Source: Nitrospirota bacterium
GTDB lineage: Bacteria > Nitrospirota > UBA9217
Assembly: GCA_963790205.1 (NCBI GenBank)
Contig: CAWBNQ010000001.1
Location: forward strand, 288,001-352,000
Direction: 5' to 3'
Length of the DNA stretch: 64,000 nt
Shown here: positions 42,777 through 50,363 of the stretch, piece by piece
Position numbering within the stretch: position 1 is the first letter of the stretch
Layout: each line of letters opens with the position of its first letter
Made by a program: the position numbers and the translations under genes
Notes under the pieces: generated by a model
Database searches by the model: none
Seen by the model: only the letters and a program-made list of their open reading frames with translations
What the model was told of the DNA's origin: nothing

Positions 42777-43801
42777 TGTCACGACTGCGCAAGGACCCCA
42801 TCGTAGGCCGATGGATCATTATCTCCAACGAACGGTCCAAGAAGCCCCAGGACTATTCTTTTGAAGAACCCATAGACGACGTCACCCCGGCCGAATGCCC
42901 GTTCTGCTCCGGCAACGAAGCAAAGACCCCCCCCGAGATCGCATCGTTCCGCGCCGAGAAGACCCTTCCCAATGCAACAGGCTGGTGGGTGCGCGTCATC
43001 CCGAGCAAGTTTCCGGTCCTCCATATCGAAGGCAGCCTCGAGCGCGAGGGGAGCGGCATCTACGATTGGATGAACGGCATCGGCGCTCATGAGATCATCG
43101 TCGAAAGCCCCGAGCACGCGCTCCGCCTCGAAGACCTGCCCGAGAGCCAGGTCGAGAAGGTCCTGTGGTCCTACCGCGACCGCATTCTCGACCTTGAGCG
43201 CGACAGCCGTCTCCGGTACGTGCTCGTTTTCAAGAACCAGGGCTGGACCGCCGGCTCGGTCCTGAACCATCCGCATTCCCAGATCATCGCCACGCCGGTC
43301 ATCCCCAAGTTCGTGAAGGAAAAGCTCGACGGCGCCAAGTCCTATTACGATTACAAGGAGCGCTGCATCTTCTGCGACATCATCAGGCAGGAGCTCTCGA
43401 GCCAGGAGCGCGTGGTCGAAGAGACGCGCCACTTTCTCGTCATCGTGCCCTATGCCCCCCGCTTTCCCTTCGAGACCTGGATCTACCCCAAGAAGCACCT
43501 CTGCTCCTACGTGGACATCACGAAGGAAGAGATCATGGATTTTGCGCGGACGCTCCGCACCACGCTGAAGCGTCTCAGCAAGGTGCTGAACAACCCGCCC
43601 TACAACTACATGCTCTATACCGCGCCGAACCGCGTGCCGCGCCGGGGCCACTGGCACACCCTGAACGACGACTTCCACTGGCACCTGGAGATCATGCCGC
43701 GGCTCACCCGCGTCGCGGGCTTCGAGTGGGGCTCGGGCTTCTACATCAACCCCACGCCGCCGGAAGAGGCGGCGAAGTATCTGCGGGACGTGAAGCTGTA
43801 A
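42776..43801 (+). CDS. galT: Galactose-1-phosphate uridylyltransferase family
   Basis: CPFC, HPHSQ, HWHLEI, AGFEWGSG. Confidence 0.92.
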   Translation: MSRLRKDPIVGRWIIISNERSKKPQDYSFEEPIDDVTPAECPFCSGNEAKTPPEIASFRAEKTLPNATGWWVRVIPSKFPVLHIEGSLEREGSGIYDWMNGIGAHEIIVESPEHALRLEDLPESQVEKVLWSYRDRILDLERDSRLRYVLVFKNQGWTAGSVLNHPHSQIIATPVIPKFVKEKLDGAKSYYDYKERCIFCDIIRQELSSQERVVEETRHFLVIVPYAPRFPFETWIYPKKHLCSYVDITKEEIMDFARTLRTTLKRLSKVLNNPPYNYMLYTAPNRVPRRGHWHTLNDDFHWHLEIMPRLTRVAGFEWGSGFYINPTPPEEAAKYLRDVKL

Positions 43802-43879
43802 ACCCCGGCGCCCTATCGAGCTAACTCCCCTGCGTCACTGCCAGCTTATCTGATAATGATTGTCCGTTTAGGTTTCCGC

Positions 43880-44215
43880 CGCAAAGGGCCGCCGCGAATA
43901 TGTTTACCGCAAGCGCTGAAATGAAAAACCCCGACATCCATCCCTGAAAACAGCACTGTCATCCGCAACGATATCCTATTGCCCAAAGGCCCCTTTTCCT
44001 GTATAGTCCTATTCGAAAGGGGCTTGCGGATTTGTCCGGACTTGCCGCTTTTCATCCGAACAATCCTCGAAACAGGCACCACGCCCCGAATCAAGCCGTC
44101 TGTATAGCCCGACTTTAAAGAGAAAATCATTTGAAACCCCATAGGCTGCGGCGCTCAACAGCTTAGTCCAACCAGCTTCTTTCTGGTAATGCGCACAGAA
44201 AGAGGCCTGAACATT
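43880..44215 (+). repeat. Diverged copy of the IS91-type transposase 3' tail, downstream non-coding region and right end
   Basis: Colinear similarity with 46593-46925 (KGPPRI codons through GCTTAGTCCAAC and the hairpin). Confidence 0.85.
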
Positions 44216-44543
44216 ATTTTAGAATTTCCGTGAGATATGCGCTTGCGAACATAACAAAAATAATGCAAGCAATTCCCTAGCGGGCATGTATTTTGCTAAA
44301 CTCTATAATTCCGGAAATCCAGAATTATAGAGGGGGCTACACAATTCCTTGTTGAACTAAGCCGCTGCGCGGCGGTGTTATTCGCATTCCAATAAGTCTC
44401 TCTACAATTCATCCCCGCATATCTCGATAGATTTTCTTCGTCTCGCTCCTTGCTTCATAATCCTGACCGTTCTACAATCTTCTTTCGCATCACCATCGGC
44501 GTCATGCCGTTGGAATTTCGATTCAACGGAAGGAGATTATGCA

Positions 44544-45401
44544 ATGGAAACGTTCAAAGAACAGATGCAGGGCGACATGGTGCTTCGAGGATTAGCCCCG
44601 AAGACGCAATCATTGTATCACCGGGCGGCGCGCGATATGGAACGCCATTTTAAAAAACCGCCCGACCTTTTGGAAGACGGCGATGTCAAAGCGTATCTGC
44701 TTTACCTCGTCCGGGATAAGAAGGTATCGCTATCCACCCTGAAGATAACTTACAGCGCGCTGCGGTTCCTCTATGAAACGACGCTGGGCAAAGGTTGGGT
44801 GATGGACAAGATTCCCTATCCGAAGACGACCAAGACACTTCCTATCGTTCTCGAACGGGAGGAGGTACAGGCCATGTTCGAAGCCACTCCCAGCCTGAAG
44901 CAGCGCGTGATGCTGATGGTGACCTACTCGGCAGGGCTCCGGGCGAGCGAGACCGCCCGGCTCAAGATCACGGACATCGACAGCAGCCGTATGCTGATAC
45001 GCGTGGACCAGGGCAAAGGCAAAAAAGACCGGTATACCCTTTTATCCCAGGTAGCGCTGGAAGCGCTTCGGGAATACTGGAAAGAATATAGACCGACGCA
45101 TTGGCTCTTTCCGGGAGAAAAGCCTGAAAACTACATTTCCATTAGCACCGTCCAAGAGGCGTTCAAACGCGCGAAGAAAAAAGCCGGCATCACGAAGCCG
45201 GCAAGTTGTCACACGCTTCGGCATAGCTTCGCCACACACCTGCTGGAGTCGGGAGCTGATCTGCACTATATTCAGCTTCTGCTCGGCCATGCGTCGGTGA
45301 GAACGACCACTATTTATCTCCACGTGAGCAAAAAGAACCTCTCAAAGATCGTGAGCCCTCTGGACTTAGGCCCCTTCTTAAATCCTCCACAAACCTCGTA
45401 G
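44544..45401 (+). CDS. Tyrosine recombinase (N-terminal SAM-like domain)
   Basis: GLRASE, KGKKDR, HTLRHSFATHLLE, LLGH, TTIYLH: full R-K-H-R-H-Y set. Confidence 0.95.
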   Translation: METFKEQMQGDMVLRGLAPKTQSLYHRAARDMERHFKKPPDLLEDGDVKAYLLYLVRDKKVSLSTLKITYSALRFLYETTLGKGWVMDKIPYPKTTKTLPIVLEREEVQAMFEATPSLKQRVMLMVTYSAGLRASETARLKITDIDSSRMLIRVDQGKGKKDRYTLLSQVALEALREYWKEYRPTHWLFPGEKPENYISISTVQEAFKRAKKKAGITKPASCHTLRHSFATHLLESGADLHYIQLLLGHASVRTTTIYLHVSKKNLSKIVSPLDLGPFLNPPQTS

Positions 45402-45422
45402 CCTGCACACGCGACACCCGCG

Positions 45423-46616
45423 GTGTACACGCGAGATAGCCTACAGATCGAAGTCGCGGACATCTTTCGCCGGTACGGTCCTCTTTACCGGAACGCTCAT
45501 CCCATGCCCTTGAATCGTCTTCGCGCCATGCGGGCGATCGAGACCTGCCGCACCGCCGACCAAGGCGGTCACGTGGACGAATGCGAGCACTGCGGGACAA
45601 AAGTGATCTCGTACAACTCCTGCAGAAACCGGCATTGCCCCAAGTGCCAGTTCCTTAAAAAAGAGCAGTGGATCGAGGCCCGGGAAGAAGACCTGCTTCC
45701 CATTCCTTACTTCCATGTCGTTTTTACCATCCCCGATAAACTCAATCCCCTTGTGCTCCGGAACCAGGAGGCCCTCTACGGGATCCTGTTCAAGGCCGTT
45801 TCGGAAACCCTGACGGAACTCTCGAATACGCAGAAACACTTGGGCGCGGAAATCGGTTTTATCTCGATCCTGCACACCTGGGGACAGAACCTTATGGATC
45901 ATCCGCATCTCCACAACATCGTCACCGGCGGCGGATTGTCCAAGGGCGGACGGAAATGGAAATCATGCAAGAATGGCTTTTTCCTTCCCGTCAAGGTCAT
46001 GTCGAAACTCTTTCGGGGGAAGTTTCTCGCTTATCTGAAAAAACTCCGTGCCGAGAACAAACTTGTCTACCCCGGCGTCGTAAGCCATCTTGCGTCGCCG
46101 GGAGTTTTCAAGGCCTTCATCGCCGATTTGTACAAGAAGCAGTGGGTCGTCTATTGTAAGCCGCCGTTCGACGGAACAAAAGGCGTTCTTGAGTATCTCG
46201 GCAGATACACCCACCGTATCGCGATCAGCAATCACCGGCTCGTGAAGATGATGGACGACAAGATCTCCTTCCGGTGGCGCGACTACGCGGACAGCAACAA
46301 AAGCAAGATCATGACCGTGGACGCCGATGAGTTCATCCGGCGGTTCCTGCTTCATGTCCTGCCCGACCGGTTTGTCAAAATCAGGCATTACGGTCTGTTG
46401 GGAAACAGATGCCGCAGAAAGAAACTCGACCAATGCAGAGAGCTTCTGGCCTGCGTTGATCAGAACGAGGCGGAGCAGAAGACTGAGACGTGGCAGGAAG
46501 CTTTGCTCAGGATCGCCGGCATTGACGTGGCCAAATGCCCTGCCTGCGGCGAACGCAGAATGCGCACAATCGAGATCATGCAGCCCGCGCGCTGCAAAGG
46601 ACCGCCGCGAATATGA
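45423..46616 (+). CDS. IS91 family (Y2 HUH) transposase
   Basis: Zn-binding C..C...SCRNRHCPKC, HUH motif HPHLH, YLGRY, C-terminal CPAC. Confidence 0.95.
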   Translation: MYTRDSLQIEVADIFRRYGPLYRNAHPMPLNRLRAMRAIETCRTADQGGHVDECEHCGTKVISYNSCRNRHCPKCQFLKKEQWIEAREEDLLPIPYFHVVFTIPDKLNPLVLRNQEALYGILFKAVSETLTELSNTQKHLGAEIGFISILHTWGQNLMDHPHLHNIVTGGGLSKGGRKWKSCKNGFFLPVKVMSKLFRGKFLAYLKKLRAENKLVYPGVVSHLASPGVFKAFIADLYKKQWVVYCKPPFDGTKGVLEYLGRYTHRIAISNHRLVKMMDDKISFRWRDYADSNKSKIMTVDADEFIRRFLLHVLPDRFVKIRHYGLLGNRCRRKKLDQCRELLACVDQNEAEQKTETWQEALLRIAGIDVAKCPACGERRMRTIEIMQPARCKGPPRI

Positions 46617-47113
46617 TTACCACAAGCACTGAAATGAACAACCCGACTCCGACATCCATCCCCGAAAAAAGTCACGTCTTTCGCAACGATACCCTATTGC
46701 CCAAAAGCCCTTTTTCCTGTATAGTCTTTTACGAAAGGGGCTTGCGGAGCAGTCCGGAATCGCCGCTTTTCACCCGAACAAGTCTCACGCCCCTGCCAAT
46801 GCTGTCTCCGCGGACTTCGTTTTAAGCTGACAAATCATTTGAAATCCCATAGCGACGTGGCGCGCAACGGCTTAGTCCAACCAGCTTCTTTCTGAATAAA
46901 GCGTTCAGAAAGAAGCCTTAACATTGGCTCCGGGATAAATCAACTCACCGCCAACCAGCAGTACAAGCTGACAATGACCGCTTAACTTCCAGAGGGAGGA
47001 GCGTGAGAATTACATATATGTTAATCTCGGCTTCTTCAGATTAGACAATCATAGTATTGCTCATGAGACAGTTTAAATATCCGGTGATTTGATTCACCCA
47101 GGAATGATGAAAA

Positions 47114-47377
47114 ATGAAATTATTTTTAGCGATAATTTTAATAGCCCTACTAGCTATTGGCGTAATCTTAGTTTCTCGTTGGATGTTTAGAGGAATCAAG
47201 TCAGAGAAAATCAGATTGTTCTTAATCATGTTTATGGGCTTCGCGATATTTTTTAAGGTCGGCATCATTTTAAGTTACTTTATTAGATCTCCTCACGTTT
47301 TAATTGCATTACCAATAGTTACCGGCAGTACAGGTGCCCTAATAGCATTCATTTCGTATAAATATCAGTCAAAATGA
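47114..47377 (+). CDS. AT-rich small membrane protein (cassette-like)
   Basis: 87 aa, 3 hydrophobic segments, much lower GC than flanks. Confidence 0.65.
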   Translation: MKLFLAIILIALLAIGVILVSRWMFRGIKSEKIRLFLIMFMGFAIFFKVGIILSYFIRSPHVLIALPIVTGSTGALIAFISYKYQSK

Positions 47378-47383
47378 AAATGC

Positions 47384-47442
47384 TTCCAACATGCGCATCC
47401 ACAGCGACGCGCCAAAGGCGGCGCGTGACGCGCGCGTTCAAT
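47384..47442 (+). other. attC-like recombination site (59 bp)
   Basis: TTCCAAC ... GTTCAAT; inner boxes GCGCATCCAC / GTGACGCGC with one unpaired base; GC-rich central stem; 7 bp after a stop codon. Confidence 0.6.
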
Positions 47443-47479
47443 GTCTTTTGGAACTCTTGATATCGGAAGGTACACAGAG

Positions 47480-48109
47480 ATGGGAATAACAATATACGCG
47501 TCGGGGAAAATTAACAGCATAGACGACATTCCGCGTTTGATCGACGACCTGAAAGGGGCCTCCGAGGAATGCGATTGGAAATATCACATCATAAATGACG
47601 ACTTTGCCGTGCAGCCGAACGCGGCATTGGCTCCGTACAATGCGAGCGATCGTGCGATCACGATAGAAGGGTCCCTCGGGTTGAAAGGGATCATTTTGAA
47701 CGTGGATCCGAAAGCGGAGCCGTTCGCCGTCTTGTTCGATTGCAACGGAGTGCTGACGGACATGATGCAGCAGCTGTCCTGGATCAACGACAATGAGCAG
47801 GGAGAACGTTTTACCTCTTGCAAGATGCAGTTTGCGGACATCGACGCTCACATCCACATTGTTGAACTCCTGGACAGTCTCAAGAAGAAATATATTTCAG
47901 ACCTCTTCGTGAGCGATGAAGGCGCATATTGGGAGAGTCGCGAACGCAGGCTGTTGGCGGAAAAACGGGTCGCCCTGGGGCACTACCTGCGCCATGCCGA
48001 AAAGGTGATCGGCAGCATCGAGGTTTCAAGCGCCGCCGCTCGTGACGCCGAAAGTATTGCCGCGCGGATCGAGGAGGCGTTGCTGAAATCGGAGAAGGAA
48101 GACGGATAA
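47480..48109 (+). CDS. Hypothetical protein
   Basis: Clean ORF MGITIYASG..., VSDEGAYW motif. Confidence 0.75.
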   Translation: MGITIYASGKINSIDDIPRLIDDLKGASEECDWKYHIINDDFAVQPNAALAPYNASDRAITIEGSLGLKGIILNVDPKAEPFAVLFDCNGVLTDMMQQLSWINDNEQGERFTSCKMQFADIDAHIHIVELLDSLKKKYISDLFVSDEGAYWESRERRLLAEKRVALGHYLRHAEKVIGSIEVSSAAARDAESIAARIEEALLKSEKEDG

Positions 48110-48125
48110 TACCTTTCGCAGCGTC

Positions 48126-48356
48126 TCATAGACCGGCCTGATAGGACAGGACGTCTTCCGCTTCCTTGTTGAGCTTTGCCGATTTTTTGTTGAGGATTTC
48201 AAGGTCGGCGAGGTCGCGTTTTCTGTGAACCCTGCGTTCGATATACTCCCTGACGGCTTTTTCAATAAATTGCGACGTGTACATTTTGCCGCCGAAATCC
48301 TCGTTGATGTTCTTCATCAACTTTGAGTCGAGCGTTATGGAAATCTTAATTTTCAT
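48126..48356 (-). CDS. Ribbon-helix-helix (CopG-like) antitoxin
   Basis: KIKISITL...SQFIEKAVREY. Confidence 0.7.
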   Translation of the reverse strand: MKIKISITLDSKLMKNINEDFGGKMYTSQFIEKAVREYIERRVHRKRDLADLEILNKKSAKLNKEAEDVLSYQAGL

Positions 48357-48424
48357 AGTATGAATATACTACCCAATATCTACCGTATCAAGCATTCCTT
48401 GGCAGTGTTTCTCTCCCACCTTTG

Positions 48425-50363
48425 CTACTTCGACTGCGCCCTCGTATAGTTCAACATCCCGCCTGCAAGCAGGATATCCCGCTGCCTCGCGCTGAGCGAG
48501 GACTTGAGCGTAATATTCTTGCCACCCGAGGTCTTCAATACGAAGTCCGCGCCCTTCGCAAGGACTGCCTTGATGTCCCTGATCTCGACCTTATCGTTCG
48601 CGCCAACTGCATCATAGTCCGCCTCGTTCGCAAAGGTGAGCGGCAGGATGCCGAAGTTGATGAGGTTGGCAGCGTGGATGCGCTCGAAGGATTTGGCGAT
48701 AACGGCCTTGACTCCCAGATACATGGGGCAGATGGCTGCGTGCTCCCGGCTTGATCCCTGGCCGTAGCTTGCTCCGGCGATGACGATATTGTGGATTCCC
48801 GCCTTTTTGTTCTCAAGCGCCTTCTTCGAGAACGCCGCGTCAACGCCCTCGAATACGAACTCGGCGTACTTCGGGAATGTTCGACCGGTATTTCAACCGT
48901 GATCCGGCCGGCATGATATGGTCGGTGGTGATCTTATCGCCGACCTTGATCGCGACCATGCCTTTGATCGTTTCCCGAAGCGGCTCGGCAGCGGGTGGGT
49001 CGCCGATGTTCGGGCCGCGGTAGACCGTGACGGAAAGCGGGTCTTTCGACGGCGGCAAAATCATGCTGTCGTCGATCCAGAACTGGTCCGTTATTGCAAC
49101 GCTCGGATAGGGAATGCCGAGGTCGCGGGGGTCGGTGATCCCGCCGGTGAGGGCAGCGGCCACGGCGCTTTCAGGGCTCGCGAGATAGACTTTCGCGCTT
49201 TTTGTGCCTGAACGTCCCTCGAAATTCCGGTTGCTCGTCCTGATCGAGACGGCGTCGGTCTTCGGGGCCTGGCCGGCGCCGATGCAGAAACCGCAGGTAG
49301 CTTCGAGCACCCGCGCGCCGGAGGAGATGATGTCGGCCAGCGCGCCGTTTTTGGCGATCATCTCGAGGACCTGGCGCGAGCCGGGGGCCACGCCGAAGCT
49401 TACGTTCGGGAAAACCCTTCTGCCTTTGAGCATCGAGGCCACGATCATCAGATCGCGATACGATGAATTCGTGCAGGAGCCGACCATGACCTGGTCGACC
49501 TGTGTGCCGGCAAGCTCCTTCACCGTCCCGATATTGTCCGGAGAATGCGGCTTGGCCATGAGCGGTTCGACCTTGCCGAGGTCGAGCTCGATTACCCGGT
49601 CGTACTTCGCATCGGGATCGGCCAAAAGCTCAGTCCACTCGGCGTCTCTGCGCTGGGCTTTCAGAAACGCTCGTGTTACCTCATCGCTCGGGAAGATCGA
49701 CGTGGTGACGCCGAGTTCGGCGCCCATATTGGTGATCGTTGCGCGCTCGGGCACGGTAAGCGACTTCACCCCTTCGCCCCCGTATTCGATCACGCTTCCC
49801 ACGTTGCCTTTGGTCGTGAGCATTCGGAGGATCGTGAGAATGACGTCCTTGGCCGAAACCCACGGCTGAAGCCTGCCGATCAGATTCACCTTGACGACCC
49901 GGGGACAGGTAAGATAGAAGGGCCCGCCGCCCATTGCCACTGCCACATCGAGACCGCCCGCGCCGATGGCGATCATGCCGATGCCTCCACCGGTGGGCGT
50001 ATGAGAATCGGAGCCCAAAAGCGTCCCGCCCGGCCGTCCGAAGCGCTCGAGATGGACCTGATGGCAGATGCCGTTTCCCGCCTTCGAATAGTAGATGCCG
50101 TAGCGCGACGCCACGGTCTGTAGATAGCGGTGGTCGTCGGCGTTCTCGAATCCGTCCTGAAGCGTGTTGTGGTCCACGTAGCTCACCGAGAGCTCCGTCT
50201 TGGCCCGCGGAACGCCCATGGCCTCGAATTGAAGATACGTCATGGTGCCGGTCGCGTCCTGGGTCAGCGTCTGGTCGACCCTGATCGCAATCTCAGTCCC
50301 GGCTTCGAGCCTGCCTTCGGCCAGATGGGCTTCCAGAATTTTGTAAACGAGGTTCTTTCCCAT
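48425..50363 (-). CDS. Aconitate hydratase (apparent +1 frameshift near 48874)
   Basis: QDATG, DHN, GSDSHT, GSCTN, CGFCIG, SNRNFEGR, TTDHI; GQGSSREH and C-terminus in another frame. Confidence 0.9.

Follow-up and report, generated by a model that had tools for sequence, protein, structure and literature searches.

A multi-copy Nitrospirota mobile element coupling a tyrosine recombinase to an IS91-family transposase, with N^TT boundaries and a predicted attC-like junction

We describe a mobile element in a 64,000-nt stretch of a Nitrospirota genome (assembly GCA_963790205.1, contig CAWBNQ010000001.1, positions 288,001 to 352,000), hereafter the window, to which positions refer unless a contig is named. 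The element encodes a tyrosine recombinase (YR) and an IS91-family Y2 HUH transposase (Tnp), as listed in Table 1. Its boundaries, multi-copy spread, lack of target duplication, target consensus, end-to-end junction and covarying end pairing are established below by sequence comparison, and with N^TT boundaries (^, crossover) in 7/7 copies at unrelated genomic sites, the 2.57-kb element is real and recently mobile. We further consider it likely that YR would insert a circle, folded from the bottom strand, through a single strand exchange, and that the HUH protein would copy the circle by rolling-circle replication.

The genome compared (14 contigs, 4.34 Mb) carries seven copies, and the span common to all of them is 44352-46923, followed by TT. 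Three copies are identical across the element, two have a single-base change in the right outer arm and one is 99.96% identical, while the remaining copy is 1 base longer and has a frameshift near the end of the tnp gene. Directly 5' of the left TT, six copies have G and one has A. Both ends are cut at N^TT, and no target duplication is found among the seven copies. Furthermore, when the C3:721569 copy is cut out at G^TT, an open reading frame (ORF) of more than 1268 codons is recovered; hence, nothing was duplicated or lost on insertion. A first-pass annotation of this DNA had described an element at 44301..46925 with symmetric ends, each consisting of a hairpin and GTT. The 20-nt inverted repeat that it reported (44351-44370 / 46862-46881, matching at 18/20 positions) is indeed where it was claimed to be, and so are the hairpins (44301-44332 and 46884-46916), but the seven-copy comparison refutes the symmetry, as the element starts with the TT at 44352 and stops with the A at 46923. 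Given that the hairpin at 44301-44332 stands before only three of the seven copies, and that a relative (L057) has it in the absence of the element, it is target DNA, and the symmetric-end model was dropped. G44351 and the TT at 46924-46925 are likewise derived from the target and lie outside the element, so the earlier extent was too wide by 44301-44351 and 46924-46925. Aligning the flanks of homologous YR+IS91 pairs, as that annotation had suggested, did fix the ends and a target rule; the ends are asymmetric.

In the window's family, the base before the TT differs between the left junction, where it belongs to the target, and the right junction, where it belongs to the element; the cut therefore lies 3' of that base. 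On the right-hand side the following dinucleotide is TA in L008/L011 and L015 and GT in L125, while the left keeps TT, and the variable right-hand dinucleotide thus comes from the target. A HUH-type boundary at TT^GAAC was dropped for the same reason, namely that the right-hand dinucleotide varies with the target. From these junctions the crossover is placed at N^TT, which is the cut position of integron and Xer-type recombinases.

The target consensus is yAA-N6-(G/A)^TTR. Among 40 distinct left flanks, which come from related elements and are not independent, 31 have G at position -1 and the other 9 have A; the AA at -9/-8, i.e. 7 nt before the TT, is found in 21 (background 0.11). The right end is followed by TTR in 31/33 cases and by TAR in 2/33. 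The targets include attI sites beside intI (C6, L081, L082), attC sites (L018, L090) and the coding region of an intI gene (L003); others are plain genes, or palindromic ends close to RIT-type recombinases (L008, L011, L108, L109). The attC classifier did not discriminate, and attI and attC sites are named only where there is a clear AAC...G^TT hairpin or an adjoining intI. The relative within the intI coding sequence sits at L003:737. A second family provides a pair of filled and empty sites (L128/L133 versus L132). The 7-nt spacers of the targets are unlike the element's CTTAACA, which fits a single strand exchange. A reaction with two exchanges would require identical spacers, whereas a single exchange that is resolved by replication has no such need, as is established for integrons. 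The same is described for CTXphi (PMC3089051, the part of the text available).

The two ends are also found joined to each other. Four metagenome assemblies contain the junction …AACA^TTGAAC…, and in two of these the contig is circular and consists of the element alone. When the contig joints of four runs were compared with 43700-47500, run X1 gave a joint from 46923 to 44352 at a depth of 4.93, with 7.62 for the element body and 2.9 for one other left flank. A pattern scan of Joint Genome Institute (JGI) metagenomes returned three contigs with the junction: L075, element-only with a 55-nt terminal overlap; L076, element-only and circularly permuted; and L077, from a distant relative, with hairpin, junction, element and flank in that order. 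The element's own right end is the left flank in 0/40 distinct genomic cases, and neighbouring copies in L010 and L020 lie ~700 bp apart. Viral contigs gave 0 matches to the A^TT junction, which is uninformative; the 10 matches there to an ori-to-ter junction were rejected as chance matches in phage genes, none having YR or Tnp. Elsewhere in the window's genome (G000 C3:666990-666978), a right end runs directly into 12 nt of left end (TTGGACTAAGCC), beyond which lie AT-rich cassette-like ORFs; this relic stems from either a tandem or a circle fragment.

The partner arm of the right end is the element's own left end; hence, the hairpin is complete only once the two ends have been joined. The junction is predicted to fold into a long interrupted hairpin in 19 of the 21 elements tried, no junction having been computed for L005 and L077. 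In these 19 predicted folds the bottom strand has z-scores of -1.8 to -7.6 against dinucleotide shuffles, and it is the more stable strand in 17. For the window, the predicted energies are -34.6 kcal/mol for the joined form and -20.7 kcal/mol for the integrated right end. Over the first 12 positions of the outer stem in 16 elements (a set without L020 and both circular contigs), we counted 172 Watson-Crick pairs, 12 C-A/A-C mismatches, which are G-T pairs on the bottom strand, 0 top-strand G-T pairs and 8 other mismatches; the crossover pair adds 9 more C-A/A-C mismatches (bottom-strand G-T). Compensatory pairs occur at positions 1, 2, 4, 10 and 12, for example AAGG/CCTT in L114 and TAGC/GCTA in L023. 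We note that the cells of this count come from related sequences and amount to about six independent positions. The window's element has a perfect inner stem of 13 bp, without extrahelical bases, and most relatives have one of 9-13 bp. The folding bias is towards the same strand as the functional intermediate of IS91, given as a bottom-strand single-stranded DNA (ssDNA) circle in the accessible text of PMC13181058.

An alternative to a folded single strand is that YR excises and integrates a double-stranded circle, through a cruciform or with tolerated heterology of the Tn916/Tn554 type, and that the HUH protein only replicates this circle like a mini-plasmid or is accessory. N^TT boundaries and a junction would fit any YR, the high junction depth in X1 could be that of a replicating circle, and the lack of the IntI-specific insertion in YR is also in keeping with it. 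Nevertheless, we think it unlikely, given that the spacer in the L075, L076 and L077 junctions is the element's own, with no flank-derived coupling sequence, that the mismatch bias is one-sided towards the bottom strand, and that a plain double-stranded site needs no long covarying hairpin.

Both genes are intact, as the first-pass annotation had stated. Tnp scores 471 bits against NF033538 (cut-off 125), and its residues H162-L-H164, Y258 and Y262 supply the HUH motif and both tyrosines, which are conserved across 22 linked YR-tnp pairs. In the same 22 pairs, R133, H223, R226, H249 and Y258 of YR are kept, with a single H-to-S change at H223; K160 is not conserved, and the lysine of a GKG motif, K158, aligns with IntI4. 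The identities of the two proteins covary (Mantel rho 0.75, 0/999 permutations), a figure inflated by kinship. YR falls under the cut-offs of the XerC, XerD and integron-integrase (IntI) models. Against TIGR02249 it reaches 204.6 bits (cut-off 265) and matches only positions 3-182 and 236-313, leaving 183-235 unmatched; the alignment with its best match in the PDB, IntI4, is split in the same place. Both alignments bear out the earlier statement that YR lacks the IntI-specific insertion. In a tree of 41 rows, the element YRs, IntI and IntI-like proteins are set apart from XerC/D with a support of 88/81, which leaves the split open.

Alternatively, the element might be a cassette mimic moved by the host's integron integrase, with its own YR acting as a regulator, an excisionase or a dimer resolvase. 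Three of the seven copies lie at an attI-type site in a host with three IntI, and relatives are found at attI beside intI (L081, L082) or at attC (L018, L090). However, many copies reside in genomes without an IntI over the cut-off, as well as in Clostridium and on rhizobial plasmids; IntI is present in 1/5 genomes tested, and none over the cut-off was found in G041 (a complete Alicyclobacillus chromosome with 3 copies) or in G043 (>15 copies). Multiple copies in such genomes favour the element's own YR. In addition, the crossover base is mostly A and not G, the inner stems are mostly perfect, and the catalytic residues of YR are conserved. We therefore hold movement by a host IntI to be quite improbable.

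The first-pass annotation had set the element apart from classical IS91 by its ends, yet IS91-type ori and ter motifs are not lost; they are kept just inside the ends. In L115, the left end of a classical IS91 consists of CGAG, 3 nt and a palindrome, a layout that the element's terIS-like signal shares, and the right end is GGATTTAAATTCCTATCGAT^GAAC, which the element's ATTTGAAATCCCATAG resembles. The ter-like signal is kept in 22/22 element left ends examined, with an offset of 3 in 20/22, and the bottom-strand tetranucleotide in these 22 is GTTC, GTCC, CTTG, GTAC or GTGC. The corresponding sites are GTTC for IS801/IS1294, GTCC for IS1294b and CTTG for IS91 (PMC13181058, as far as its text was available). 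The CCCATAG core of the ori-like motif is kept 30-37 nt before the outer arm in relatives. Since the ter-like motifs in 64 family genomes are preceded by the element-derived TT in 44/44 cases, and since 37/39 ori motifs run on into the outer arm (of the other two, one lies at a contig end and one lacks a transposase and looks like chance), we conclude that the HUH protein probably still recognises ori and ter yet does not make the insertion joints.

This bears on the possibility of classical IS91 rolling-circle transposition, in which HUH would cut and join both ends and YR would only resolve multimers or tune termination like Orf121. In its favour are the intact Y2-HUH protein, the retained ter-like and ori-like signals, the lack of target duplication, and the use by IS91 of the bottom-strand ssDNA circle (PMC13181058, in the part consulted). 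However, the terIS-like signal lies 2 nt inside the left end, and no copy begins at the tetranucleotide or stops at the ori; the triplet 3' of the right end is TTR/TAR and not GAAC/CAAG; the left dinucleotide belongs to the element and changes in step with the right outer arm (AA/TT in L114); and the junction observed is A^TT and not ori-ter. This explanation is accordingly very improbable.

In the mechanism that we favour, the left end would pair with the right outer arm in the circle and, together with the inner hairpin, form a complete bottom-strand site like attC or attP(+). YR would cut the bottom strand at AA^N and join it to a double-stranded yAA-N6-(G/A)^TTR site (attI, attC, RIT/Xer-like sites and look-alikes), and replication would resolve the strand-exchange junction. 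Integration would split the paired site, which would make the reaction nearly one-way, as in CTXphi. The HUH protein would nick at the CCCATAG origin and displace the bottom strand, leading to copy-out spread, while the terIS-like hairpin would halt synthesis at the left end of an integrated copy; this hairpin and the outer stem would be alternative folds of the left end. The outward promoter would serve downstream cassettes and, in the circle, the YR gene. That HUH may supply ssDNA or circles for YR to integrate at GTT/AAC sites had been suggested in the first-pass annotation; the suggestion fits the N^TT boundaries, the natural junctions, the bottom-strand bias and the internal ori and ter (whose roles are predicted), although the end anatomy proposed with it does not stand.

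Several observations weigh against folded-circle insertion. Published work ties the IntI-specific insertion to attC recognition, and without it any ssDNA activity of YR rests on analogy with XerC acting on CTXphi; the comparison of YR with IntI and Xer by phylogeny, another earlier suggestion, sets it apart from XerC/D with open support and leaves its order relative to IntI unsettled. The three IntI genes in the window's genome make help from IntI possible there. AA at -9/-8 is missing from 19/40 targets. A rolling circle begun at the ori would reach the ter-like site before the circle is complete, and the tetranucleotide beside the ori, essential in IS91 (PMC13181058, partial text), is not conserved in these elements. 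Finally, the circular contigs and the X1 joint are equally obtainable from collapsed head-to-tail tandems, L077 reads as a tandem equally well, and the three other runs show no junction among the joints listed (15 of 24).

In a scan of one genome per species, a transposase gene lies directly downstream and co-oriented at 23 of 28 YR-related loci. The close relatives are mostly Nitrospirota metagenome-assembled genomes; others belong to Thermodesulfobacteriota, Bacillota, Bacteroidota and Planctomycetota, and among plasmid records there are ISAzo26 and cases from rhizobia, Burkholderiales, Clostridium and Vibrio. With the E-value limits applied, about 370 plasmid records match each of the two proteins over nearly the full length. 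On a Vibrio alfacsensis plasmid (L117:1070-3400), an intact YR+IS91 element stands directly before an arr rifampicin-resistance cassette and its attC. The relatives examined share a common layout: N^TT and an arm on the left and, on the right, CCCATAG, an outer arm ending in AA, 1-3 nt, an inner hairpin, ~7 nt and ^TT. Non-conservation of the repeats and hairpins had been named as grounds for discarding the earlier interpretation; the layout and the outer pairing are kept, while the inner hairpin is highly variable in length and sequence. A second family, with proteins 37% and 35% identical, has the same layout in the 10 copies examined from G043. In L128/L133 (G043 C7), one of its members is inserted, reversed, between the promoter and the ori of a first-family element.

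The predicted outward promoter faces the downstream cassettes and, in the circle, would read over the junction into the YR gene. Many relatives and remnants retain both of its hexamers, and the spacer between them varies. The claim rests on this conservation, as the promoter scan found 5 sites against 3.3 +/- 1.9 in shuffles, which is no excess. Directly after this promoter, a conserved GC-rich segment (46727-46775, GGGGCTTGCGG...TCCGGAA..GCCGC) is retained in remnants and could possibly be an RNA leader or a single-strand origin. A scan of 43000-49000 with Rfam gave 4 weak matches, all under the gathering threshold.

At this locus, the region to the left of the element (44216..44351) shares 82-84% identity with its counterparts in front of the C6 and C3 copies. 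That of the C6 copy faces an IntI over the cut-off (C6:109461) and that of the C3 copy an IntI fragment (C3:526213); such an attI-type module with its hairpin precedes three of the seven copies. The IntI beside the C6 copy (G000 C6:108782-110381) appears to be broken in two, an N-terminal part of 208 aa and a catalytic frame of 311 aa, through a frameshift or a sequencing error, while the C5 IntI has an open frame of 493 aa. A GGCAT...TGCTAAACT motif followed by a covarying hairpin (44283-44340 in the window; also L057, L002, L004 and L010) recurs before attI-type sites; it could represent an extended -10 promoter for cassettes, together with a structured leader. The window itself has no intI gene, and its place is taken by the diverged right-end remnant at 43877-44213. 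This remnant is fused directly behind a galT-like gene; its segment 43936-44123 is matched without difference by a run X1 contig, and similar remnants lie at G000 C3:667496, C5:215456 and C14:19585. Right-end-only remnants are frequent (the window, C3, C5 and at least 7 loci with no transposase within 1.5 kb upstream) and often stand before cassette-like DNA. AAC...GTT hairpins related to the host attC occur at many other positions in the genome. At the end of the cassette region, 48110-48360 on the minus strand holds a short ORF that by eye looks like a ribbon-helix-helix antitoxin.

Table 1. Positions of the element, its parts and neighbouring features in the window
Feature	Positions	Strand	Remarks
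Mobile element, 2572 bp	44352..46923	+	TT of left crossover to A of right crossover; 7 copies, different flanks
Tyrosine recombinase (YR), Integron-like subgroup, without IntI-specific insertion	44544..45401	+	285 aa; catalytic and SAM-like domains, PF00589 + PF13495
IS91-family Y2 HUH transposase/Rep with zinc-binding domain	45423..46616	+	397 aa; PF04986 + PF14319; NF033538
Left end, outer-stem arm TTGAACTAAGCCGCTGCGCG	44352..44371	+	pairs with 46861-46880 once ends are joined
terIS-like signal, GAAC (bottom GTTC) + 3 nt + palindrome GCCGC-TGC-GCGGC	44354..44373	+	overlaps outer arm
oriIS-like motif ATTTGAAATCCCATAG	46837..46852	+	internal, ~70 nt before right crossover
attC-like right end	46861..46923	+	outer arm to GTCCAAC (46881); inner hairpin 46884-46896/46904-46916; 7-nt spacer CTTAACA; crossover A^TT
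Candidate YR-tnp operon promoter, TTGCTT-17-TACAAT	44450..44478	+	putative, read from sequence; kept in close relatives; absent from promoter-scan list
Predicted outward sigma70-type promoter, TTGCCC-17-TATAGT	46697..46725	+	promoter scan; conservation
Target left half, attI-type region of host integron	44216..44351	+	hairpin 44301-44332 + AA-TTCCTTG^; outside element
Target right half, gene-less mini-cassette TTGGCT...CGCCAAC	46924..46983	+	start pairs with own GCCAAC; similar element-free unit in L057
Right-end remnant of second, diverged element (78% identical)	43877..44213	+	promoter, ori-like motif, hairpin; ends A^TT
Host attC site	47385..47445	+	after 87-aa cassette ORF 47114-47377

YR+IS91 pairs are common and are filed as ordinary IS91; this locus offers an intact multi-copy element with natural junctions, a strand bias and an internal ori/ter layout. 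With defined ends, a natural junction and a target rule, the role of YR becomes testable with short DNA substrates. If the proposed mechanism is true, folded ssDNA is processed by a recombinase that lacks the IntI insertion, with a bearing on how integrons arose. Standing at the head of cassette arrays and having an outward promoter, the element may activate or reshuffle cassettes, and two-protein insertion of ssDNA at a loose site without homology is a possible tool. A broader proposition, which we regard as evenly balanced, is that these elements form a widespread, undescribed class of transposon. In each, a replicator of the rolling-circle type would be fused to an ssDNA recombinase of the integron type that has no IntI insertion. 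The product would be an autonomous, self-amplifying cassette that parasitises integron and other YR-element sites, with a left end that switches between terIS hairpin (integrated) and attachment-site arm (circle) and an outward promoter that drives cassettes. Such a class would offer a living example of how Xer-like enzymes could give rise to integron integrases, and of how attC sites could originate.

The gene pair itself has been catalogued. ISAzo26 of Aromatoleum aromaticum EbN1 (L108) has the same pair, with YR 48% and Tnp 50% identical to the element's, and it also shares the ends (TTGGACTAAACCGC; CCCATAG, outer arm, hairpin, A^TT), and ISShvi3 and the rhizobial y4qK-type pairs also combine such a YR with an IS91-type tnp gene. 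In the parts of the sources available, 245 IS91-XerD couples are reported across 15 phyla (PMC9208149), ISShvi3 is placed beside an attC site (PMC9229058), and the IS91 recombinases are assigned to the Integron-like subgroup without the IntI insertion (bioRxiv 542381). No mechanism for YR+IS91 pairs appears in the available portions of PMC5737581, PMC7923331, PMC11322121, PMC11970703, PMC8876359 and PMC10288648. This agrees with the first-pass annotation, which knew of no mechanistic description: we found none of the ends, junction, target or role of YR in the open-access literature, from which ISfinder/TnPedia, supplements and subscription papers may differ.

Classical IS91, IS801 and IS1294 likewise have a Y2-HUH transposase, a left tetranucleotide with a palindrome, an ori-like motif downstream of tnp and no target duplication (PMC13181058, from partial text). 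Unlike them, the element has its ori and ter inside boundaries at N^TT, a target of yAA-N6-R^TTR instead of CTTG/GTTC, and a transposase only ~27% identical; its right flanks are TTR or TAR in 33/33 cases, and it does not start at the terIS tetranucleotide. With integron cassettes it shares the crossover 5' of TT, an AAC...TT core around a hairpin, the bottom-strand bias and insertion at attI in cassette orientation. Cassettes have G^TT with AAC...GTT, whereas the element has N^TT and AAC with a hairpin, the base before the TT being A in the window and in most relatives. The stems of attC typically carry extrahelical (bulged) bases, which the element's inner stem lacks, and its outer stem of 12-20 bp exists in the joined form only. 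Furthermore, cassettes are non-autonomous and moved by IntI, while the element encodes its own recombinase and Rep and is present in multiple copies in genomes without IntI over the cut-off; and a functional integron has an IntI with the insertion that exceeds the TIGR02249 cut-off, whereas YR lacks the one and stays below the other.

In CTXphi, inverted half-sites pair in ssDNA and unmask an attachment site, one pair of strands is exchanged, and non-functional half-sites are left behind (PMC3089051, in the text at hand). The element's predicted fold and covariation fit such an attachment site built from two paired half-sites. CTXphi relies on replication by RstA, a folded (+)-strand attP and a single strand exchange by XerC. 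Unlike CTXphi, the element has no phage genes, brings its own recombinase in place of the host XerCD, and enters many targets and not dif, as seen from 7 unrelated genomic sites and 40 distinct flanks (dif itself was not located). With ends that differ from those of classical IS91 and a recombinase that differs from IntI, the element would nevertheless appear to work like a cassette or like CTXphi.

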